A DNA stretch of 64,000 bases from Deltaproteobacteria bacterium (GTDB lineage Bacteria > Desulfobacterota > Binatia > UBA1149 > JAJCZL01). The notes beneath the pieces were generated by a model. That model was not told the DNA's origin and did not search any database. It was given only the letters and a program-made list of their open reading frames with translations. This document shows, in pieces, positions 6,140-61,832 of the stretch. The position numbers were made by a program, and so were the translations under genes. Each line of letters begins with the position of its first letter. The stretch's first letter is position 1. The stretch is taken from the NCBI GenBank assembly GCA_029262415.1, contig JAJCZL010000001.1:53368-117367 (forward strand), given 5' to 3'.

Positions 6140-7543
6140 ATGGAATCGCGCATCATCGAGTTTGCCGGGGTCCTTCGACGACACGGCGTGCGCGTGTCAA
6201 CCGCAGAGACGCTCGATGCGTTGCGCGGCACCAACGTAACCGGCCTCGGCGACCGCGAGACCTTCCGCGCCACGCTGCGCGCAGCGATGGTCAAGCGCAC
6301 CAGCGATCTCGAGACCTACGAGAAGCTCTTCACGACTTTCTTCTCAGGACTCGGCGACCTTGTCGACGAACTCGCGAGTGCGTCGGCAGGGGAGATGAGC
6401 GACGCCGAGCTGCAAGACTTCCTCGATAGTCTACGCGACCTCATCGAAAACCAAGACATCGATATCTCTGATCTCGCCCGCGCGCTTGCCTTGCAAGACG
6501 CAGGCGCTCTCGAACAGATGCTGCGCGAACTCATGGACTCACGACCCATGCAAACTCCCCCCGGCGACAACCCCTCCCAGCAGGTCCGCGAGGCCGTCGA
6601 CGCGCTGGGTGCGCAGAGTCTGGCAGGGGAGTTCCAGCGGCTGATTCAAGCCGCCGAAGACGCAGGCATGAGCGAAGAGGCGCTCGAGAAGCTCAAAGAG
6701 TACCTTGCCCAACGCGCCAAAGACCTAGGCGAGATGATCAAGGGAATGCTGCGCTTCAAGCAAGAGCAAAAAGAGACGCCCGAACAGCAGGTCAAGGAGT
6801 TCGACCGTCTTCTCGACAAGAGCTTTTACTATCTGTCGCCGACGGAGATCAAGAAGATGCGTGAGGCAGTCACAGCGCTGGCGCGCAAGCTCAAGAACAT
6901 GATGGCGACGCGGCGCAAGCGTATGAAGCGCGGCCGACTCGACGTTAAGGGAACGCTGCGCTCATCGATGGAGTTCGGTGGTGTTCCGTTCCGTGTCCGT
7001 TACGAAAACAAGCGACGTGAGCGGCCGCAAATCGTCATCCTTTGCGATATATCGGATTCGGTCCGCAACGTCTCGCGTTTCATGCTGCAATTTGTTCACG
7101 GACTTCAAGATCTGTACTCGCGCGTGCGTAGCTACGTGTTCGTCGCCGACATCGCCGAGGTCACCAAACTGTTCTCCGACAACGACATCCAGACGGCGAT
7201 ACAGGGCGCGATCAACGGCGATTTTGTCAACGTCTATGCGCATTCCGATTTCGGACGTGCGTTCAAAAACTTTCACCGCGACCACCTCGAGGTCATAGAC
7301 GGACGTACCACGGTGATCATCCTCGGCGACGCCCGCAACAACTACAACGCCGCGCACGATTGGGCGATCCGCGATATTGCCGAAAGGGCGAAAAAAGTTA
7401 TCTGGCTCAACCCGGAGAACGCCTCAACATGGGGGTTCGGCGATAGTGAAATGGCGCTTTATAGCAAGCATTGCGACCTCGTCGAAGAGTGTAGAAATCT
7501 GCGCCAACTGTATAAGGTCGTTGACCATCTGGTAATGGACTAG
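6140..7543 (+). CDS. CoxE-like VWA-domain protein (partner of the MoxR ATPase)
   Basis: LCDISDSV MIDAS-like motif, SDFGRAF, IILGDARNNY; directly downstream of the AAA ATPase. Confidence 0.88.
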   Translation: MESRIIEFAGVLRRHGVRVSTAETLDALRGTNVTGLGDRETFRATLRAAMVKRTSDLETYEKLFTTFFSGLGDLVDELASASAGEMSDAELQDFLDSLRDLIENQDIDISDLARALALQDAGALEQMLRELMDSRPMQTPPGDNPSQQVREAVDALGAQSLAGEFQRLIQAAEDAGMSEEALEKLKEYLAQRAKDLGEMIKGMLRFKQEQKETPEQQVKEFDRLLDKSFYYLSPTEIKKMREAVTALARKLKNMMATRRKRMKRGRLDVKGTLRSSMEFGGVPFRVRYENKRRERPQIVILCDISDSVRNVSRFMLQFVHGLQDLYSRVRSYVFVADIAEVTKLFSDNDIQTAIQGAINGDFVNVYAHSDFGRAFKNFHRDHLEVIDGRTTVIILGDARNNYNAAHDWAIRDIAERAKKVIWLNPENASTWGFGDSEMALYSKHCDLVEECRNLRQLYKVVDHLVMD

Positions 7544-50960: not shown

Positions 50961-53525
50961 TCAGTCTTTGCAGGCGGTTTTCTTCGTCGTTGCCTTGCAG
51001 GGGACGCCGCGGGCGGTCAGGCAGTCATCCACGGCCGGATCGGCGCCGAACAACAAAGAGAACGAAAGCTCGCTTTGCAATAGGGCTCCGGTCACCTCGG
51101 TTCCTTTCATCGTGACGCGATACTTAGCGACGCCCTTGGACGGCACCTCGATTACCTTGACCTGGACGATGCCGTTGGCCGACGGAATCAACCCGGCCGA
51201 GTCGCGGAACCGGTACTTGCCGGCCGTTGCCGAGCTTTTGTCATCGAAGTCGGACGCGGCGATGGCGGCGGTATAGATGGTTTGCCCCGCTGCATCGCGC
51301 AGATCGACCAAGAGCCCCGTCACCGTCGGTGCCGAGCTGAAATCGGAGAGCGGCAGTTCTCCCTTGGCCTTGAGCCGGTCGTTGGCTGCTCCGTCCTTGA
51401 ACTTGACCGTGATCTTATTGCGCGAAGCCGCGCGTACGCCGTTGCTCTGGCATACACCGGCGCTACAGGTACCCGCCGGCGTGCAAAGGTCGCCGTCATT
51501 GCAAGTCGTGGCGCTCAAGTTCGCGTATACGCATCCGGTCGTGGCATTGCAGATGTCGTCGGTGCAGTCGTTGCCGTCGTCGCAGGCGGCGTCCGAGGGA
51601 GTGTGCTGGCAGACGTTACCGGGTCCGCAGGTGTCGACCGTGCAGGCGATGCCCTCCTCACAGGAAGCCAGATGTTCGCATGTGTGCGCGACGTTGTCGC
51701 AGGTATCGACAGTGCAGTCGTCGCCGTCGTCGCACAACGATACGCCGGGAAAGCCCGGAGTCCCGGCAACGCAGCCTTCGTCCTGGCATTGGCCGCTACA
51801 GAAGTCGCCGTCGGCCGTGTTGCCGTCATCGCAGCTCTCGTCCTGGTCGATCTCGGAGTTTCCGCACACCGAGCAGCCGCCGAGAGCCGGGTCGAGAACG
51901 AGCGAAACCGATGGAGCGACGGTTCCGGCGAGTATCGGCGGCTTATCGGCATCGCGGTATCTTATGTTGTTTTGGCCTTGCCAATAATCCGTCGATGTCC
52001 CGGCGATAAGCTGGGAACCTGCGTCCATGATCATGCTTTCGCGTATGACCAGGTCGTTGTCGCCGGCAGTTTCTTGCGGCGAGCCGTTCGCGTTGTCGAT
52101 TCGCCCACCGTCGAGCATCCTCAATCGGCACACATCGATTTCCGTGAAGCCGCCGTTGATGTCGGCGCCGTTTAGAATCTTGCCTCCGATGGTCACGTCA
52201 TTGCCGACCCGCAGATCCAGCATGCCACCGTAGCCGCCGTAGGCGTATTCGCCGGCGCCCGAGAGGTTGCGACCACGCACGTCGACCGTACCGTCGATCC
52301 TCACCGGACCGTCGGAGCGAATGGTCAACTCGGCGCCTGTTTTCGAGTGTCCGTCGATGAGCCCGCTCGACCCCACGGCTAAGCCTCCACCGTAGGCCTC
52401 GAAGTTCATCAAGCCACCCTGTCCGCAACGGCCCAGCCCTTGGGCGACGACCTCTCCATCCAGCGTGATCGTATCGCCGGAGAAGTACACGTTGGCGCCC
52501 AGGGGCTCGCCGCTACAACCACCGAAGCCGCTGTTGCCGATGAACTTGGCGTGGTCTTCGAATATGACGTTGCCGTCGGCGTAAAAAGTGCCGTAGCCGC
52601 CGTAGCCTTGGTACAGGTAGCCGTAATAGAGCACCGAGTTGCCGTTGGCGCTCAGCCGCGTCTTGTCGCCGGGGATCGTCGAGCCGGCGATGAGCAGGTC
52701 GCCGCCGGCGGAAAAGCCGATCGAACCGCCGGAGGCGCCGGAGACGTTACCGCCATTGCTGGTGATGTCATCGCCGACGGTGATGTTGCCGCTGGCCTCC
52801 AGTTGAGCGGCACCACCGCGTCCCCCGGAGAGTTCCATGCTCGCCCCGGTGCTGATGTCTTGCGAAGCTATCATGGTGACGTCGCCCGCATACTCGGCGT
52901 AGGTATAGCCGCTCGATGGTCCGGCATTGCCTTCGATTTTCGCGTTCGAGATCACCGATCCCGTGAACGACTCGATCTTGAGCGTGCCGGCATTGGCGCC
53001 GCCGACCGAACCGTCGATCTTGATCGTGCCCGAAAGAGTGACGTCGCCGGAGGCGTCGAGGACAACGTCGCCGCCCGGGTTGCCGCTGGCGATCAGCTTG
53101 CCGTCAAAATTGATGACGCCGCCCCCGACGCTGCAGGTGCCGACTGCGAGAACGCTGCAGGCGACATCGTCGAGACAGGCAACAGTGGGATCCCCGGAAC
53201 AGCCGCGTTGGGCGGTTACCGAGAACGTTCCTGCGGTCTGCCCGCCCAAGCGGAGGTCCACCGCAGTATTGTTAGCGCCCACGTCGACGAGAAAATCACC
53301 GCAGAGGACGCTGCTTGTCCCTTTCAATTGCCCGGCGCCGGTTACTTGCACCGTGCGCAGGCCGAAATCGAGAACGCCGGGGGGTAGTACTTCGACCACG
53401 TCGCTGATCACGCAGGGATCGGCAGTGGGAGCGCAGACATCGTCGGGGCCGTTGGCGACGATGATCGCGCCGGCCGGAACGGCGAAAACCCAAGTCAGGA
53501 GAGTCGCGTACAGAGTCTTACTCAT
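50961..53525 (-). CDS. Large secreted Gly-rich protein with Cys-rich repeats (adhesin-like)
   Basis: Sec signal ending PAGA; Gly/Ser/Asn-rich region; CGNSEIDQDESCDDGNTADGDFCSGQC (Myxococcus cysteine-rich repeat-like); four CDDGxxCTxDxC-type repeats. Confidence 0.8.
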   Translation of the reverse strand: MSKTLYATLLTWVFAVPAGAIIVANGPDDVCAPTADPCVISDVVEVLPPGVLDFGLRTVQVTGAGQLKGTSSVLCGDFLVDVGANNTAVDLRLGGQTAGTFSVTAQRGCSGDPTVACLDDVACSVLAVGTCSVGGGVINFDGKLIASGNPGGDVVLDASGDVTLSGTIKIDGSVGGANAGTLKIESFTGSVISNAKIEGNAGPSSGYTYAEYAGDVTMIASQDISTGASMELSGGRGGAAQLEASGNITVGDDITSNGGNVSGASGGSIGFSAGGDLLIAGSTIPGDKTRLSANGNSVLYYGYLYQGYGGYGTFYADGNVIFEDHAKFIGNSGFGGCSGEPLGANVYFSGDTITLDGEVVAQGLGRCGQGGLMNFEAYGGGLAVGSSGLIDGHSKTGAELTIRSDGPVRIDGTVDVRGRNLSGAGEYAYGGYGGMLDLRVGNDVTIGGKILNGADINGGFTEIDVCRLRMLDGGRIDNANGSPQETAGDNDLVIRESMIMDAGSQLIAGTSTDYWQGQNNIRYRDADKPPILAGTVAPSVSLVLDPALGGCSVCGNSEIDQDESCDDGNTADGDFCSGQCQDEGCVAGTPGFPGVSLCDDGDDCTVDTCDNVAHTCEHLASCEEGIACTVDTCGPGNVCQHTPSDAACDDGNDCTDDICNATTGCVYANLSATTCNDGDLCTPAGTCSAGVCQSNGVRAASRNKITVKFKDGAANDRLKAKGELPLSDFSSAPTVTGLLVDLRDAAGQTIYTAAIAASDFDDKSSATAGKYRFRDSAGLIPSANGIVQVKVIEVPSKGVAKYRVTMKGTEVTGALLQSELSFSLLFGADPAVDDCLTARGVPCKATTKKTACKD

Positions 53526-54499: not shown

Positions 54500-55864
54500 T
54501 CAGTCGATATAGCCCAGCCCGCGCAGCTGGAATTCCAGGTTCTCGTGGTCATCCGCCGAAGCGCTCGACTCTTGACGAGCGCCCGATCGCGAGGGGTGTA
54601 GCTCCGACCAACTCGACAAGTCGCGGCTGAGTTTGTCTACGTGGCCGCCTTCGGTGATCGGGTGTAGCTCGCTCGGATCGTTGACCAAATCGAAGTAGGC
54701 GTGTTCGTCGCGCGTTATCCAGTGGATCAACTTGGCGTCGGCTGTCGTGACCGAGCGCAGATGGCCTTTGCCTTGGCCGCGGTCGGGACTGCGTTCTGTT
54801 TCGCTGACAACCAAGCCGACCGGTGCGGAACCACCGGCGATGAAGTGCGCGAGAGAGGCGCCGGGGAGTGGATGCTCGCGGATGCCGACCAGATCCAAGA
54901 TCGTCGAAGCGATCGTGACCGAGGCCGGAACGGTATCGGGAATGCGGCGCGCTTCGATTCCCGGCCCCACAAACAACAGAGGGACGTGCAGGACCTCTCG
55001 ATACAGTGTGTTTACGTGAAAGCAGCGACCGTGTTCGAGAAACTCCTCGCCGTGGTCGGAGAGAAATACGATCACCGTATGGTCTAGTAGGTTTCGCTCT
55101 TGCAGATATGCGAGCAGTTTGCCGACGTACCTGTCGCCGCGATGTATGGCGCCATCGTATTCGGCGATGTAGCGTCGAATGCTACTGCGCTGCTTGTCGC
55201 TCTGGCAAAAACTTCGCAACCCGCGTTTCGGCGGGGACTCGGGCAGATCGATGGCTGCGCGATCTAAGGCATCGGTGAGATAGGGCGTATGGGCATCGTA
55301 ACCGTGCGAGAACAGGAAGAACGGCTCCTCCATATCCTGTTCGAACCAGTATTTGGTAGCTTCGAGATTGTCGCGGAAGTACTTGCCGTTGGTACGGTAG
55401 GTGTCAAAGCCGTTGTCGAAGCCGAAGGCCGCATCGAGATTCCCACCGCCTGTGAATGCCGCCGTCACATAGCCTTTGCCTGACAAGACCCCTGCCAAAG
55501 TCGGTATGGTATCGGACAGTCGAGCACGGTCGCGCAGCGCTTTGTAGCCGTGCTCGGCCGGATAGAGGCCCGTAAACATCGACATATGCGCCGGGCGCGT
55601 CCAGGAAGACTGGCTGATCGCATTTTCGAACAGGGCCGCAGCGGCTGACAGTCGATCGATGTTGGGGGTGACATCGCGAGCTTCGTAGCCGTAGGCACCC
55701 ATGTGATCTGCGCGCAACGTGTCCATCGAAATCAGCACTACGTTGCAGCCCGGGCAGGCGGGGACGGGGGGCTCGGGCGCTCGACTACAGTCGGCGGCCA
55801 AGGCCACGGCGCCCGCCAGCGCTAGGCTGGTTAGCCACGTATGTCGGTTCGCAGGATCACGCAC
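54500..55864 (-). CDS. Sulfatase-like hydrolase (alkaline phosphatase superfamily)
   Basis: SMDTLRADH, WTRPAHMSMFTG, HGYDAHTPY, SDHGEEFLEHG; N-terminal signal. Confidence 0.88.
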   Translation of the reverse strand: MRDPANRHTWLTSLALAGAVALAADCSRAPEPPVPACPGCNVVLISMDTLRADHMGAYGYEARDVTPNIDRLSAAAALFENAISQSSWTRPAHMSMFTGLYPAEHGYKALRDRARLSDTIPTLAGVLSGKGYVTAAFTGGGNLDAAFGFDNGFDTYRTNGKYFRDNLEATKYWFEQDMEEPFFLFSHGYDAHTPYLTDALDRAAIDLPESPPKRGLRSFCQSDKQRSSIRRYIAEYDGAIHRGDRYVGKLLAYLQERNLLDHTVIVFLSDHGEEFLEHGRCFHVNTLYREVLHVPLLFVGPGIEARRIPDTVPASVTIASTILDLVGIREHPLPGASLAHFIAGGSAPVGLVVSETERSPDRGQGKGHLRSVTTADAKLIHWITRDEHAYFDLVNDPSELHPITEGGHVDKLSRDLSSWSELHPSRSGARQESSASADDHENLEFQLRGLGYID

Positions 55865-56022: not shown

Positions 56023-57552
56023 ATGCCCATCTTACCGAGGCTGCCGCAACGTGTGCTCGCCGGGCGAGGCGGTTGTATATCCGCTAGGCGCCTGGTCGAG
56101 TATCACCTGTTCGAACGGCTCGGCCGCACAATTCTCCTGAACGTCGAGACCATGCTGTTTTACGAGGCCACGCTACTGGTGCGTGAACTCGTCGAGCAGC
56201 TGGCCACCGAAGCGGAAGTCGATCCGATCTACGCCATGGGCCGGAGATATCCGCGCGCCGAGGTCGAGCAAGCGTTGGCCTATCTCGAGCGGGAAGGATT
56301 CCTGCGATCACCGGACGAAGCCGACCATCGCCCGGCTCCACCACTAAGGAAGCGGCGCGGTATCCGCCACCTGGAATTGATGGTCACGCATGGCTGTAAC
56401 ATGGGTTGCCGCTACTGTTACGGTGCTTACGGCGAGGCCGGGTGGAGCGATGCCCCGCACCTGTACGGATCGCAGAGCAAGGGCATGTCGCTTGAGACGG
56501 CGCTTCGGGGAGTCGATTTCCTGTTTCGCGAATCCGGCACGAACCGCGACTTAAGCCTGATTTTCTTCGGCGGCGAGCCGTTGCTCGAACTGAATCTGAT
56601 ACGCCGGATCGTCCCCTATGTCCGTCAACGCGAAGCAGAGACCGGCAAAACAGTTAGCTTGTCCCTGTCTACTAACGGAACGTTGCTCAGCGAGAAGGTC
56701 GTCGAGTTCCTCGTCGCCAATCGCATCGGCTGCCAGGTTTCGATCGACGGCGGAAAGGAAGTCCAGGATCGCAACCGACCGTTGCGCGGCGGCATGGCCT
56801 CCTACGATCGAATGCTTCCCGGCGTTCAACGGCTGATCGAGGCGCGACCGGGACGGGTTCGCGCGCGTGCGACGGTTGCTCACGACGAAGTGCAGGTAGT
56901 CGAGATAGTCGAGCATCTGCTCGGCCTCGGCTTTGGCTCGGTCCATGCCGAACCCGCTGTGGGTGGTCCTGAGGGCATGGCCGTGAGCGAAAGCGACGTC
57001 AGGGCAATCATGTGTCAAAACGAGAAGCTAGCCGGCAACTTGGTCGAGAGCGTGCGCGCGGACCGGCGATTAGACTACGCCAACCTAGTCCGCTTTGTTC
57101 GCCAGACCCGTGTTGTGCGTGAGCGCCTGGCTTACTATTGCGGTGCGGCCCGGACCTACCTGGCGCTATCGCAGGACGGGGCGTTCTATCCCTGCCACCG
57201 TTTCGTCGGTATGGACGACTACCGCATGGGCGATCTCGAAAATGGTCTCGATCTTCGCCTGCAAGACAGGATTCTGGCGCTTACGGTCGATGCGCGTGCC
57301 ACATGTAAGGATTGCTGGGCCCGGTACTTTTGTGGTGGTGGTTGCTGGAAGCACGCCGTCGACAACAGCGGCGGTCTCGAGCGGCCCGAAGAGGAGGTGA
57401 GTTGCCGGATCATCCGCCACACGATCGAGTGCGCGATGGCAATCAACACCGAGCTGCGCCTGATCGATGCCGAGGTCCTCGGTGACGGCACCGACCCGGC
57501 CGCTGTCGACCGCTACGGTCGGGCGCGCCCGGAGGTAAAGGCCGGTGCGTAG
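56023..57552 (+). CDS. Radical SAM/SPASM maturase with an N-terminal RRE (PqqD-like) domain; PapB/CteB/QhpD-like
   Basis: CNMGCRYC at 56395-56418, FFGGEPLL, STNG, SIDG; SPASM YCGA...YPCHRF...CKDCWARYFCGGGC...C; N-terminal YHLFE...LLNVE...EQALAYLEREGFL RRE-like segment. Confidence 0.93.
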   Translation: MPILPRLPQRVLAGRGGCISARRLVEYHLFERLGRTILLNVETMLFYEATLLVRELVEQLATEAEVDPIYAMGRRYPRAEVEQALAYLEREGFLRSPDEADHRPAPPLRKRRGIRHLELMVTHGCNMGCRYCYGAYGEAGWSDAPHLYGSQSKGMSLETALRGVDFLFRESGTNRDLSLIFFGGEPLLELNLIRRIVPYVRQREAETGKTVSLSLSTNGTLLSEKVVEFLVANRIGCQVSIDGGKEVQDRNRPLRGGMASYDRMLPGVQRLIEARPGRVRARATVAHDEVQVVEIVEHLLGLGFGSVHAEPAVGGPEGMAVSESDVRAIMCQNEKLAGNLVESVRADRRLDYANLVRFVRQTRVVRERLAYYCGAARTYLALSQDGAFYPCHRFVGMDDYRMGDLENGLDLRLQDRILALTVDARATCKDCWARYFCGGGCWKHAVDNSGGLERPEEEVSCRIIRHTIECAMAINTELRLIDAEVLGDGTDPAAVDRYGRARPEVKAGA

Positions 57553-58597
57553 ACGAAGGTTCTTGAGTTGGTTGCTGCGCCTTACCGGCGGCTGTTTCAC
57601 GGTTGCTGCGGGGATTGGCGCGGCGCCGTTGGCGCGAATCAACACCGTGTTGCTCGGTGAGGCCTGGGCGCAAGAGCCGTGCACCGAGGACATGTGTGCG
57701 ACGCGCGATGCGTGCGCGCTAGGAGACACGATCGGGCATACATGTGAGCTGCGCGACATCTGTGACACGGACGAATCGGGAGACTGCGCTGGAGATGTCT
57801 GTAGCAGCGATCGGTCGGAGGACTGCCGCGGCGATTCCTGCCAGTCCGACAACTCCGGTTCTTGTAACAGCGACAACTGCGATAGCGATTCGTCGGGGAG
57901 CTGCCGCAGTGATCAGTGCACGGATGATTCCTCGGGAGACTGTACCAGTGATCAGTGCGATACGGATAGTGTTGATTGTATCGGGGACGCGTGCACCACC
58001 GACGAGATCTGCCCGAGCGAGGTTTGCGGCGATGACGTTCCCGCTTGCGTTTCCGATTCTTGTTCGACGGATGCCTCAGGAAGCTGCGTCAGCGACGACT
58101 GCTCGGCGGATACCTCGGGCGCGTGCGCTAGCGACTCTTGCACGAACGATAGCTCGGGCAGTTGCCGCGGCGACAGTTGTCAAAGCGACGATTCCGGAAG
58201 TTGCCGGAACGATGCATGCACGACGCAGGACAGCTCGGTTTCCTGCAGATCCGACGCTTGCGACATCGATGGTGCGGGGTCGTGTGTCGCCGACGGCTGT
58301 GCCACGGATGGCGCAGGTGCCTGCACAGCCGACCGCTGCCAGGCCGACGGGTCGGGAGACTGTGCATCGCAGGACATCTGTGTAGTGGACGCATCATCGC
58401 TGTGCGGAAGTGACCTGTGCCGCGACGACCGCAGTCCGTCTGAGTGTACGGCAAAGGATACCTGCGCACTCGACTTGGCCGAGAACAGGCATTCGGTACG
58501 CCGGCACCTGGCGCGAAAGGATATTGACCGGGCGACAAAGTGGCTCTACGGGCTGTCGGCGACAGTCTTTTGGCTCGGAGGAAGTTGGTCGGGATAA
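57545..58597 (+). CDS. Twin-arginine-signal Cys/Asp repeat protein A (putative radical SAM substrate)
   Basis: RRRRFL, AWA-QEPC cleavage site; 41 Cys in residues 46-310, each followed by D/E at +3 or +4; hydrophobic C-terminus; GTG overlaps the radical SAM stop. Confidence 0.85.
   Translation: MRRRRFLSWLLRLTGGCFTVAAGIGAAPLARINTVLLGEAWAQEPCTEDMCATRDACALGDTIGHTCELRDICDTDESGDCAGDVCSSDRSEDCRGDSCQSDNSGSCNSDNCDSDSSGSCRSDQCTDDSSGDCTSDQCDTDSVDCIGDACTTDEICPSEVCGDDVPACVSDSCSTDASGSCVSDDCSADTSGACASDSCTNDSSGSCRGDSCQSDDSGSCRNDACTTQDSSVSCRSDACDIDGAGSCVADGCATDGAGACTADRCQADGSGDCASQDICVVDASSLCGSDLCRDDRSPSECTAKDTCALDLAENRHSVRRHLARKDIDRATKWLYGLSATVFWLGGSWSG
57680..58474 (+). repeat. About 13-aa tandem repeat C-x2-D-x-C-x2-D-x-S-G-x (protein A)
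   Basis: For example CQSDNSGSCNSDNCDSDSSGSCRSDQCTDDSSGD. Confidence 0.9.
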
Positions 58598-58651
58598 AAT
58601 GGAGCGTTAAAGGCACGAGGATCGGCGCCGGATTTATGACGGAGTAGGCCA

Positions 58652-60664
58652 ATGCTCAGAAGAAAGTTCCTCAGATGGATCGTCGGGTTCGGCGGCGGTT
58701 ACTTCACGGTTGCAGCAGGGACCGGCGTTGCGCCATTGTTGCGAATCAACACGGCGTTACTTACCGAGGCCCGCGCGCAAGAGCCCTGCGGCCAGGATAC
58801 CTGCACGATCTCGGACGTGTGCCAAGCTGACAGCGTCGGTCATACCTGCCAGGTACGCGACGTATGCGACGAGGACGGCTCAGGTGACTGCACCAACGAC
58901 GAGTGCACCCAAGATGCATCGCTCGACTGCAGCGGCGACCGCTGCATAAGCGACGCTTCGGGTTCTTGCACGAACGACGGCGGTCCCGCCTGCACCGACG
59001 ACCAGAGCTGCCCGGCTGACGAAGTGGGTTGCCGCGATGATTACTCGGGCGTCTGCGGTTCGGACAGCTCGGGTACTTGTACGAACGACTCCTGCGGCTC
59101 GGACAGTTCGAAAGAGTGTCAGAGTGACATCTGCGCCGCCGACTCATCGGGCAGTGGAGATACGGATTTCTGCGTTGCCGATAGCTCCGGTGGGTGCCAA
59201 AACGACGACTGCGTTTCCGACAAATCTGGTGATTGTGGGAACGACCTGTGCCTCAGCGATAAATCGGGCCAATGCACCGGCGATCGTTGCCGCAGCGACA
59301 GTTCAGGGGACTGCACGAACGACGGCGGTCCGGCATGCATCGAGGATCAGAGCTGCCCGGCCGACGAAGTTGGCTGCCGCGATGATTACTCGGGCGTCTG
59401 CAGTTCGGACAGCTCAGGGTCTTGCACCAACGACTCCTGCGGCTCGGACAGCTCGAAAGGCTGTCAGAGTGACATCTGTCTCGCCGACTCGTCGGGCGAC
59501 GGTAGTACCGATTTTTGCATTGCTGACAGTTCCGGGCAGTGCGACGTAGATAGCTGCATTTCAGATAGATCGGGTTCTGGGAACCACGACGACTGCCTTT
59601 CAGATAGTTCCGGAGCCTGCACGGAGGACCTCTGCAGATCAGACAGCTCCGGCGACTGTACCGGCGACCGCTGCCGCTTGGACTCCTCGGGAATCTGCAC
59701 TGAACACGACGTGTGCGTACGGGATGCGTCGTTTCCTTGCGCGAGCGACCTGTGTAGGGACGACCGCAGCCCGGCCGACTGTGCAGCCAAGGACACGTGC
59801 GCGCTCGACTTGGCAGGCAACGGCCGATCGACGGGCCGGCGCCTCGCCCGCGCAGGGCTCAGTCGAACGTTGCACTGGTTATACGGAATTTCCTCGCTCG
59901 CGCTCGCTGTCGCGCTCGGGCACGGCGTCGCGCGCGCTGCCGTCGTGATCGACGCTACCGATGCCGTCTTCTTCCCGGATGTGACCTACGCGACTGGACA
60001 AACGGTTAGCGTGGGCGCACCGGTAGGGCCGTTTCTGCGCGACTGTGACGACGACGGCAGCCTCGAGGCCGATACCAACGGCGACGGCGCTTGCAGCGGT
60101 GATCCTGAGGTGGATGACTTCAATGGCGACGGCAGCCGTGAACTGCCGCCGGCTACGGCCTTGTCCGGAAACTACGAGTTCACCTGCTTTTTTATCCCCG
60201 ATGATGTCGCGATCATCGTAACCGGCCCGCTCAGCGTGACGGCATCGATGGAGGTCGCGGTGTTCGGTGTGCTGAGGCTTGCGTCGGGAGCCGATGTATC
60301 TTCGTCGGCGATGATCGATACGCGCACGAGTGCCTGGCTGTCCGAGGACGGCTCGCCGATCAACCTGACTACAGGGCTTGTCGGGACCATCGACGAGAGC
60401 GACAGCGGCTTCGACGGTAGAGAAGGTGTGCCGCCGATTTTGTACACGAGCCTTTGCGATACGAACGGGCTGTGCGGTGACGCCAACTCCGACGGTCGTA
60501 TCACCGCGACGGACGCCTTGGCGGTTCTCAAGAACGCCGTTGGTCTGGGCGTGTGTTCCGCTGCCGTTTGCGACGTGAATTCCTCGGGCGGCGTGACGGC
60601 GACCGACGCACTTCTGGTTCTCCAGAAAGCGGTGGGCGTGGCGGTGACCCTGGACTGTCCTTGA
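58652..60664 (+). CDS. Twin-arginine-signal Cys/Asp repeat protein B with a C-terminal dockerin-like domain
   Basis: LRRKFL, ARA-QEPC; 48 Cys in residues 46-386, each followed by D at +3 or +4; second RR-plus-hydrophobic segment; GDANSDGRITATDAL...DVNSSGGVTATDAL duplicated dockerin-like motif at 60473-60661. Confidence 0.87.
   Translation: MLRRKFLRWIVGFGGGYFTVAAGTGVAPLLRINTALLTEARAQEPCGQDTCTISDVCQADSVGHTCQVRDVCDEDGSGDCTNDECTQDASLDCSGDRCISDASGSCTNDGGPACTDDQSCPADEVGCRDDYSGVCGSDSSGTCTNDSCGSDSSKECQSDICAADSSGSGDTDFCVADSSGGCQNDDCVSDKSGDCGNDLCLSDKSGQCTGDRCRSDSSGDCTNDGGPACIEDQSCPADEVGCRDDYSGVCSSDSSGSCTNDSCGSDSSKGCQSDICLADSSGDGSTDFCIADSSGQCDVDSCISDRSGSGNHDDCLSDSSGACTEDLCRSDSSGDCTGDRCRLDSSGICTEHDVCVRDASFPCASDLCRDDRSPADCAAKDTCALDLAGNGRSTGRRLARAGLSRTLHWLYGISSLALAVALGHGVARAAVVIDATDAVFFPDVTYATGQTVSVGAPVGPFLRDCDDDGSLEADTNGDGACSGDPEVDDFNGDGSRELPPATALSGNYEFTCFFIPDDVAIIVTGPLSVTASMEVAVFGVLRLASGADVSSSAMIDTRTSAWLSEDGSPINLTTGLVGTIDESDSGFDGREGVPPILYTSLCDTNGLCGDANSDGRITATDALAVLKNAVGLGVCSAAVCDVNSSGGVTATDALLVLQKAVGVAVTLDCP
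58967..59656 (+). repeat. 345-bp (115-aa) internal tandem duplication in protein B
   Basis: CTNDGGPAC...CPADEVGCRDDYSGVC starts at 58967 and again at 59312; the register holds to 59656. Confidence 0.9.
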
Positions 60665-61600: not shown

Positions 61601-61758
61601 TAGAACAAAGCGCAACCTCGAACCCGTCACCCGAATTGGGACACGCGACGACGCGGCTTCTCGGGCAGCGCCGGATCTACCAACTCGCGCACCTCGGCCA
61701 ACCGCCTTTGCGAACATTAAGGTAGCGATAGAGACTTATGCCGTAACTACCTGATAAG

Positions 61759-61832
<74 letters not shown>

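Follow-up and report, generated by a model that had tools for sequence, protein, structure and literature searches.

Known systems and the present locus

The known case that comes closest to the three-gene unit described here is found in Methanococcus voltae: CrpABC (PMC13692751, 2026). Its substrates, CrpA and CrpB, are large paralogous Cys-rich repeat proteins with CxxQ/D motifs, and their almost identical ~47-residue N-terminus is the leader engaged by the RiPP recognition element (RRE; RiPP, a ribosomally synthesized peptide that is post-translationally modified) of CrpC, a radical S-adenosylmethionine (SAM)/SPASM enzyme whose product carries ranthionine-type thioethers (PMC13692751). Similar parts are found in a 64,000-nucleotide (nt) stretch of DNA from a Deltaproteobacteria bacterium (assembly GCA_029262415.1, contig JAJCZL010000001.1, positions 53,368 to 117,367; the whole stretch is referred to as the window), where a radical SAM/SPASM enzyme that bears an RRE at its N-terminus, here termed the maturase, is encoded together with two paralogous large Cys-rich repeat substrates, proteins A and B. 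The likeness of CrpA and CrpB to A and B is one of description. CrpA and CrpB are archaeal and no signal peptide is reported for them, whereas the N-terminus of A and B has the form of a twin-arginine translocation (Tat) signal, and most members of their family add a second signal-like segment and a surface domain. The initial annotation proposed that this N-terminus is both the export tag and the maturase recognition site. The proposal is considered plausible here, if short of probable: a Tat-type architecture, the presence of TatC, a genuine RRE and extra conserved leader positions speak for it, and against it are the lack of a predicted docking and the failure of Tat hidden Markov models (HMMs) to match the leaders.

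QhpC, the gamma subunit of quinohemoprotein amine dehydrogenase, has a short leader that is taken off by a dedicated protease, and it has a dedicated exporter. Genes for a protease and an exporter of the QhpC type are absent from the window locus. The QhpC enzyme, QhpD, is homologous to the maturase (TIGR03906, E-value 1e-78; 265 bits, with a cut-off of 453) and, in PMC13692751, is described as forming Cys-to-Asp/Glu thioethers on a periplasm-bound protein, with its RRE engaging the leader. The closest structural match to the maturase is CteB of the CteA-CteB (SCIFF) system. The CteA leader pairs as a β-strand with β3 of the CteB RRE and thereby extends the sheet (PMC6231123). A phmmer comparison of the present leader with PDB chains, made for leader peptides of the CteA kind, gave no match. 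The substrates of the ranthipeptide systems CteA-CteB and PapA-PapB differ from A and B in that they are peptides of ~45-50 residues with short leaders and no export signal.

Two further groups of systems resemble parts of the present one. Tat signals double as binding sites for NapD, TorD and DmsD (PMC3712460, PMC3316669). In the pairs NapA-NapD, TorA-TorD and DmsA-DmsD the twin-arginine signal binds a maturation factor, and export waits for cytoplasmic maturation (PMC3712460, PMC3316669, PMC8428690). The partner there is a chaperone of the TorD/NapD families and the maturation is a cofactor insertion, whereas the partner proposed here is the RRE of the modifying enzyme itself. Bufferins (BufA with BufB/BufC) are protein-sized RiPP-like precursors that have a general-pathway signal peptide, a partner with an RRE-like domain, and no dedicated protease or exporter (PMC11626156). 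However their signal is of the Sec type and their enzyme is a multinuclear non-heme iron-dependent oxidative enzyme (MNIO) instead of a radical SAM enzyme. In the literature searched, no system was described in which a Tat signal occurs together with a radical SAM RiPP or a ranthipeptide.

The leaders of proteins A and B

The two substrate genes and the parts of their leaders are located in the window as follows.

57545-58597, plus strand: protein A, 350 amino acids (aa)
57545-57670, plus strand: leader/signal of protein A, residues 1-42
57548-57571, plus strand: RRRRFLSW of the protein A leader
57581-57634, plus strand: h-region of the protein A leader
57626-57655, plus strand: PLARINTVLL of the protein A leader
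57662-57670, plus strand: AWA of the protein A leader
58652-60664, plus strand: protein B, 670 aa
58652-58777, plus strand: leader/signal of protein B, residues 1-42
58658-58678, plus strand: RRKFLRW of the protein B leader
58733-58762, plus strand: PLLRINTALL of the protein B leader
58769-58777, plus strand: ARA of the protein B leader

The N-terminus of protein A is MRRRRFLSWLLRLTGGCFTVAAGIGAAPLARINTVLLGEAWAQEPC and that of protein B is MLRRKFLRWIVGFGGGYFTVAAGTGVAPLLRINTALLTEARAQEPC. As had been annotated, both start with RRxFL (RRRRFLS in A, LRRKFLR in B), both contain FTVAAGxGxAPLxRINTxLLxEAxAQEPC in identical register, and in both the first repeat Cys is residue 46. An AxA is present at residues 40-42 of each, and protein A has Cys17 inside its h-region, which is extra to the repeat Cys. 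The architecture is thus twin-arginine-type: RRxFL is followed by an h-region rich in Gly, Ala and Thr and by a c-region that has a basic residue, R31, and an AxA, of which A40-x-A42 is, by motif, a putative signal peptidase I site. The uncharged run after the RR motif has 18 residues in A and 22 in B, and the 12-residue Kyte-Doolittle mean is 1.62 in A and 1.47 in B (range in native Tat signals of the genome, 1.09-2.36). TatC is encoded in the genome (221 bits).

The leader had been described as unusually long. This label is not justified, because native Tat signals of the same genome reach ~39 aa: ten of these have ~29-39 aa, with c-regions of 10-15 aa that also contain Arg (e.g., MATSKFSRRLFLKTSALSVLALGLGRLQPLAPGSAEASA), and 42 aa is only slightly above their range. 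The E. coli TorA and DmsA signals have 39 and 45 aa.

Identity between A and B is 64% in residues 1-42 and ~53% elsewhere, by itself a modest excess. Signal peptides had been taken to diverge quickly, a premise that the control bears out only weakly. For this control five paralogous molybdoenzymes were used, all native Tat-dependent proteins of the genome; identity is 29-47% in their signals vs 39-48% in their mature parts.

Conservation of the leader in the family

Members of the family were gathered by pattern scans, by inspection of the neighbours of maturase homologs, and by a profile HMM search of 1.84 billion representative proteins. The search with the leader profile gave 30 matches at E<=0.001, 26 of them at E<=1e-10, and a word-indexed homolog search with the leader gave one relative only. 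The resulting alignment has 35 leaders that fall into distinct clusters below 50% identity and come from Deltaproteobacteria metagenome-assembled genomes, Syntrophorhabdus, Desulfobulbaceae and Hydrogenedentes. R4 and N33 are invariant. In the twin-arginine block R3 is found in 33/35, F6 in 31/35 and L7 in 26/35 leaders; W9 and G16 are each found in 30/35. The initial annotation had pointed to the conserved RINT block on the basis of A and B, and its conservation extends well beyond this pair: in addition to the invariant N33 (35/35), L29 is kept in 31/35, P28 in 29/35 and R31 in 26/35 leaders, the others having mostly K or Q in place of R31. Thus A, B and 33 other leaders have in common two blocks, [RK]RxF[LI]xW and PLx[RK][IVL]Nxx[LF][LF]. 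An AxA follows both blocks, about 13 residues ahead of the first Cys (A40 in 28/35, A42 in 30/35).

Protein A and its adjacent paralog B are ~53% identical, and the shared leader could be seen as a by-product of their recent duplication. With the same blocks recurring across the 35 leaders, which represent several lineages and clusters of less than 50% identity, the probability of this explanation is negligible.

To our knowledge W9, G16, P28, L29 and N33 are outside what a Tat signal needs. These positions therefore point to a second binding partner of the leader, as judged from the alignment. The proposed mechanism is as follows. Residues 1-42 would be a Tat-type signal, with RRxFLxW in the n-region, a weak Gly/Ala-rich h-region of 17-22 residues, a basic residue and AxA, and with W9, G16 and the block P-L-x-[RK]-[IVL]-N-x-x-[LF]-[LF] as the extra, non-Tat positions. 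The weak h-region would avoid the signal recognition particle (SRP) and Sec, and the precursor would thus be held in the cytoplasm. The maturase, encoded immediately upstream, would dock on the leader through its RRE, at the PLxRIN or the RRxFLxW block, and would form Cys-to-Asp thioether rings of the ranthionine type at the ~40-48 CxxD repeats. The crosslinked protein would then be released to TatBC and exported, and signal peptidase I would cleave after A42. Because Tat export and the signal peptidase I cut are part of the proposal, no dedicated protease or transporter would be needed.

A plain Tat signal should also be considered. Here the maturase would read the CxxD core or the folded domain, and the block in the c-region would serve export or an unlinked chaperone, possibly through Sec avoidance by the basic residue, through spacing, or through presentation to signal peptidase. 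All canonical Tat features are present in the leaders, and the genome has TatC, as this explanation would have it. It leaves unexplained the invariant Asn and the P-L pair of the c-region, for which no Tat or signal peptidase I role is known, and c-regions of the native Tat paralogs in this genome do not have such a shared block. On the whole this explanation is regarded as possible but doubtful.

It should be noted that a frameshift interrupts the leader of one member (L016, 6400-6720), so that RRTFLAWL and LPLSRLNAAFL...C are read in different frames; either the assembly is in error here or the gene is a pseudogene.

The maturase and its RRE

The enzyme and its RRE are located as follows.

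56023-57552, plus strand: radical SAM/SPASM peptide/protein maturase, CteB-like, 509 aa (from NCBIfam matches and CteB alignment)
56101-56304, plus strand: N-terminal RRE of the maturase (winged helix-turn-helix, peptide-binding), about residues 27-94 (from alignment with CteB and from an ortholog modeled with AlphaFold2)

The radical SAM motif CX3CX2C is CNMGCRYC (56395-56418). The SPASM model TIGR04085 matches with 60 bits (cut-off 27), and no SPASM cysteine varies among 112 sequences. The best NCBIfam matches are to the nif11 radical SAM (7e-88; 295 bits, equivalog cut-off 519), SCIFF (2e-80; 271, cut-off 425), PapB (8e-80; 269, cut-off 340) and QhpD families, the last with the values given above. 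Since every equivalog cut-off is missed, the maturase represents a separate subfamily, which comprises 198 clusters at E<=1e-60. About 14 of the maturase clusters (P0044, P0047, P0049, P0053-P0058, P0062, P0067, P0076, P0077, P0079) share a C-terminal tail, ...(P)AG[VI]S[RG][VL]AV, that the window enzyme does not have.

Pfam PqqD/RRE models did not match the N-terminus of the maturase. However residues 27-475 align with CteB (PDB 5wgg) with an E-value of 1e-61, and the alignment takes in the CteB RRE region, residues 7-~90 of CteB. An AlphaFold2 model of a 54%-identical Desulfobulbaceae ortholog, made with 111 homologs, has a mean predicted local distance difference test (pLDDT) score of 83.7. 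Its N-terminal domain is β-β-β-α-α-α (strands at 15-20, 23-28 and 33-36, helices at 39-49, 57-64 and 67-79) with a pLDDT of about 96, and the best PDB match of the model by Foldseek is again CteB 5wgg (E 1e-38, target template modeling (TM) score 0.90). Thus, judging by the CteB alignment and the predicted fold of the ortholog, the maturase bears a genuine N-terminal RRE. Residues of its strands β1-β3 are nearly invariant across the 111 homologs, which argues that the RRE is in use; this counts against a leader that is only a Tat signal.

Cys/Asp repeats, internal segment and topology

The remainder of the two proteins is composed as follows; orthologs whose C-termini are of a surface-sorting type are added.

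57671-58597, plus strand: protein A past the leader, Cys repeats, then RR and a hydrophobic end at 58496-58594
58778-60664, plus strand: protein B past the leader, Cys repeats, an internal signal-like segment at 59834-59938, a DxNGDG-type domain, and a dockerin at 60479-60637
Orthologs with surface-sorting C-termini: L011 (3500-3657), L009 (1700-1814), P0147, P0144, P0142, P0137

An Asp or Glu stands at +3 from 35 of the 41 repeat Cys that protein A has past the leader, and from 44 of the 48 in protein B. In most members a second segment lies past the last repeat (CALDLA). It consists of [ST]RRxFA[RK]AG..K..K, 13-17 strongly hydrophobic residues and an AxA/AYG-Q site, and is carried by A (58496-58594), B (59834-59938, which reads GRRLARAG...GHGVARA), L006, L008-L012, L016, P0124, P0131, P0135 and P0146. 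Protein A stops inside this segment; protein B and most orthologs run on into a surface-type domain. C-terminal sorting modules vary. Protein B has a dockerin (PF00404, 2.5e-7, at the position listed) in addition to the DxNGDG-rich domain, a Syntrophorhabdus member has TIG/IPT domains, and in L011, P0147 and P0144 an IPTL-CTERM is found above the TIGR04174 cut-off. The C-terminal domain is placed outside the cytoplasm because of these dockerin or IPTL-CTERM tails.

This arrangement can be read in two ways. The whole protein may be exported by the N-terminal Tat signal, in which case the internal segment is no membrane span and the IPTL tail is a Tat-type C-tail anchor. Alternatively it is the internal segment that directs export, a role which the N-terminal region then does not have. 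Under the second reading the leader could be of the RiPP type, cytoplasmic and only resembling a Tat signal, with the Cys/Asp domain inside the cell, tethered by the internal segment, which would be a real Sec/SRP-type signal or the anchor of the C-terminal surface domain. Hydropathy agrees with such a leader: the 15-residue Kyte-Doolittle mean of the N-terminal h-region is rarely >1.7, and those of the internal segment and of the C-terminal tags are >2. The positive N-flank and the AxA/AYG-Q site of the internal segment, the placement of IPTL-CTERM and dockerin tails outside, and the end of protein A exactly in a segment of the internal type are also in its favor. However the presence of RR-x-F-L at 33-35 of the 35 leaders together with a conserved AxA would then be an odd coincidence, and topology is also consistent with export of the whole protein by Tat, the IPTL tail serving to anchor the C-terminus. 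In addition the short members L014a, L014b and L015, as well as a sister family, have no internal segment and still keep an RR leader. A purely cytoplasmic leader is thus regarded as unlikely.

In the sister family (L019, 352-981; L021, 5001-7257) the repeat proteins are of the CxxD type and have a Tat signal of the classical kind, VTRREFIxAGLVVS..TILAGTW.DLS.A|Q. The signal is preceded by a conserved extension of ~33 residues, NPPDDRP..APEILAxSSPASGK, and the repeat proteins are followed by a radical SAM enzyme whose N-terminus is RRE-like. This pairing of repeat proteins with a classical Tat signal favors the export of the whole protein by the N-terminal signal. That an RRE-bearing enzyme here too accompanies substrates with a Tat signal and an additional conserved block also speaks for the dual role.

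Points that weigh against a dual role

A leader that acts both in export and in recognition has to be reconciled with several observations that weigh against it. The first of these concern its Tat character. By the 12-residue Kyte-Doolittle mean the h-regions of the family average 1.40 vs 1.82 for native Tat signals, and in 14/35 leaders the uncharged run has fewer than 13 residues. Single members deviate further, with KR (L012) or TR (P0140) in place of the twin arginines or with an uncharged run of 8 residues, the minimum (Hydrogenedentes member). When the leaders were compared by hmmscan to NCBIfam and Pfam, neither TIGR01409 nor PF10518 matched at E<=10, and at this threshold the A and B leaders are absent from the 16 matches of the genome-wide TIGR01409 search; this also counts in favor of a cytoplasmic leader. 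The internal RR segments likewise have no match to the Tat HMMs of NCBIfam and Pfam at E<=10. With regard to topology, the positive-inside rule would give the internal segment an N-in/C-out orientation, and the Cys/Asp domain would then be on the cytoplasmic side.

Other points concern recognition. Docking was modeled with a natural fusion as query, which was obtained from locus L014 by translating through a TGA. In this locus the first substrate continues the frame of the maturase and is parted from it by the TGA and one codon only (6480-6488). The arrangement is probably coincidental; read-through would yield a natural enzyme-substrate fusion. The AlphaFold2 model of the fusion was poor (mean pLDDT 55.8, leader 30-45) when the alignment had 21 rows, substrate rows among them. 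When the deep alignment of maturases was used and the substrate was cut to its first 75 residues, the enzyme reached a pLDDT of 83.7 and the leader 28-46, and the leader formed only a short helix over RRKFIQWLLTL. The leader was not docked on the RRE in either of the two AlphaFold2 fusion runs, and the test is a weak one because the network was that for monomers, the leader was fused in cis and the peptide had no alignment. The two models lean slightly against leader-RRE docking, and the undocked leader counts in favor of a plain Tat signal.

Precedents from the literature cut both ways on the dual role. The leader bound by the CrpC RRE (PMC13692751), the CteA leader bound by the CteB RRE (PMC6231123) and the Tat signals bound by maturation factors (PMC3712460, PMC3316669) are in line with it, whereas others agree better with a plain Tat signal. 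The bufferin signal peptide is dispensable, and precursors without it are modified (PMC11626156). Processing by CrpC is lowered but not abolished by truncation of the leader or removal of the RRE, so that the enzyme is partly active without them (PMC13692751). SuiB leaves its RRE unused and SuiA does not engage it (PMC6231123).

If the dual role is nevertheless adopted, the RRE may be viewed as a Tat-proofreading chaperone that masks the twin-arginine signal until ~40-48 thioether rings are installed, a general signal thus replacing leader, leader protease and exporter. This extension is tentative and rather less probable than the dual role from which it departs. In most members it would also add the internal RR/signal-like segment, with the result of two export signals on one polypeptide.

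Gene context and distribution

The maturase, protein A and protein B form a three-gene unit, all on the plus strand. The GTG start of protein A overlaps the maturase stop and has a Shine-Dalgarno sequence, GGAGG, 9 nt ahead of it; that of protein B, GGAG, is 6 nt ahead of the ATG. No leader peptidase or ABC exporter is encoded in the operon, in agreement with the initial annotation, and neither a protease nor an ABC exporter was found in the nine loci compared (the window and eight others). The conserved unit in the nine loci is the maturase with one or two substrates only, which fits the use of general pathways.

The genome of the window has only two copies of this protein type, A and B. Among 301 sampled genomes of the phylum the leader profile matches in one, the window's own. 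This patchy spread, together with an adjoining tRNA-Arg, would fit a lateral acquisition of the system. The tRNA-Arg(CCT), at 61758-61832 on the minus strand, is directly downstream of the operon.

Next to the maturase is a gene for a sulfatase/alkaline-phosphatase-family protein (54500-55864, minus strand). The maturase was considered as an anaerobic sulfatase maturase for this neighbour and the assignment was rejected, as TIGR03942 gives just 90 bits with a cut-off of 349. The usual Cys/Ser-x-Pro-x-Arg motif was not seen when the sulfatase-like sequence was read by eye, and the protein is therefore an unlikely maturase target. Farther upstream (50961-53525, minus strand) is a gene for a secreted-looking protein of 854 aa with Cys-rich acidic repeats in its C-terminal half (TIGR02232 myxo_disulf_rpt, PF00526). 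Its Cys-rich family differs from that of A and B.

Significance of the leader

If the dual role is correct, the leader would merge RRE-guided RiPP modification with the signal-peptide-based proofreading of the Tat pathway. It would also account for the exit of protein-sized, heavily crosslinked products from a cell that has no protease or transporter dedicated to them. The family is small and well defined and thus offers targets for mutation, i.e., RR, W9, P28-L29, R31 and N33. A maturase and a substrate would then constitute a simple and portable two-gene cassette for making and exporting thioether-stapled repeat proteins.

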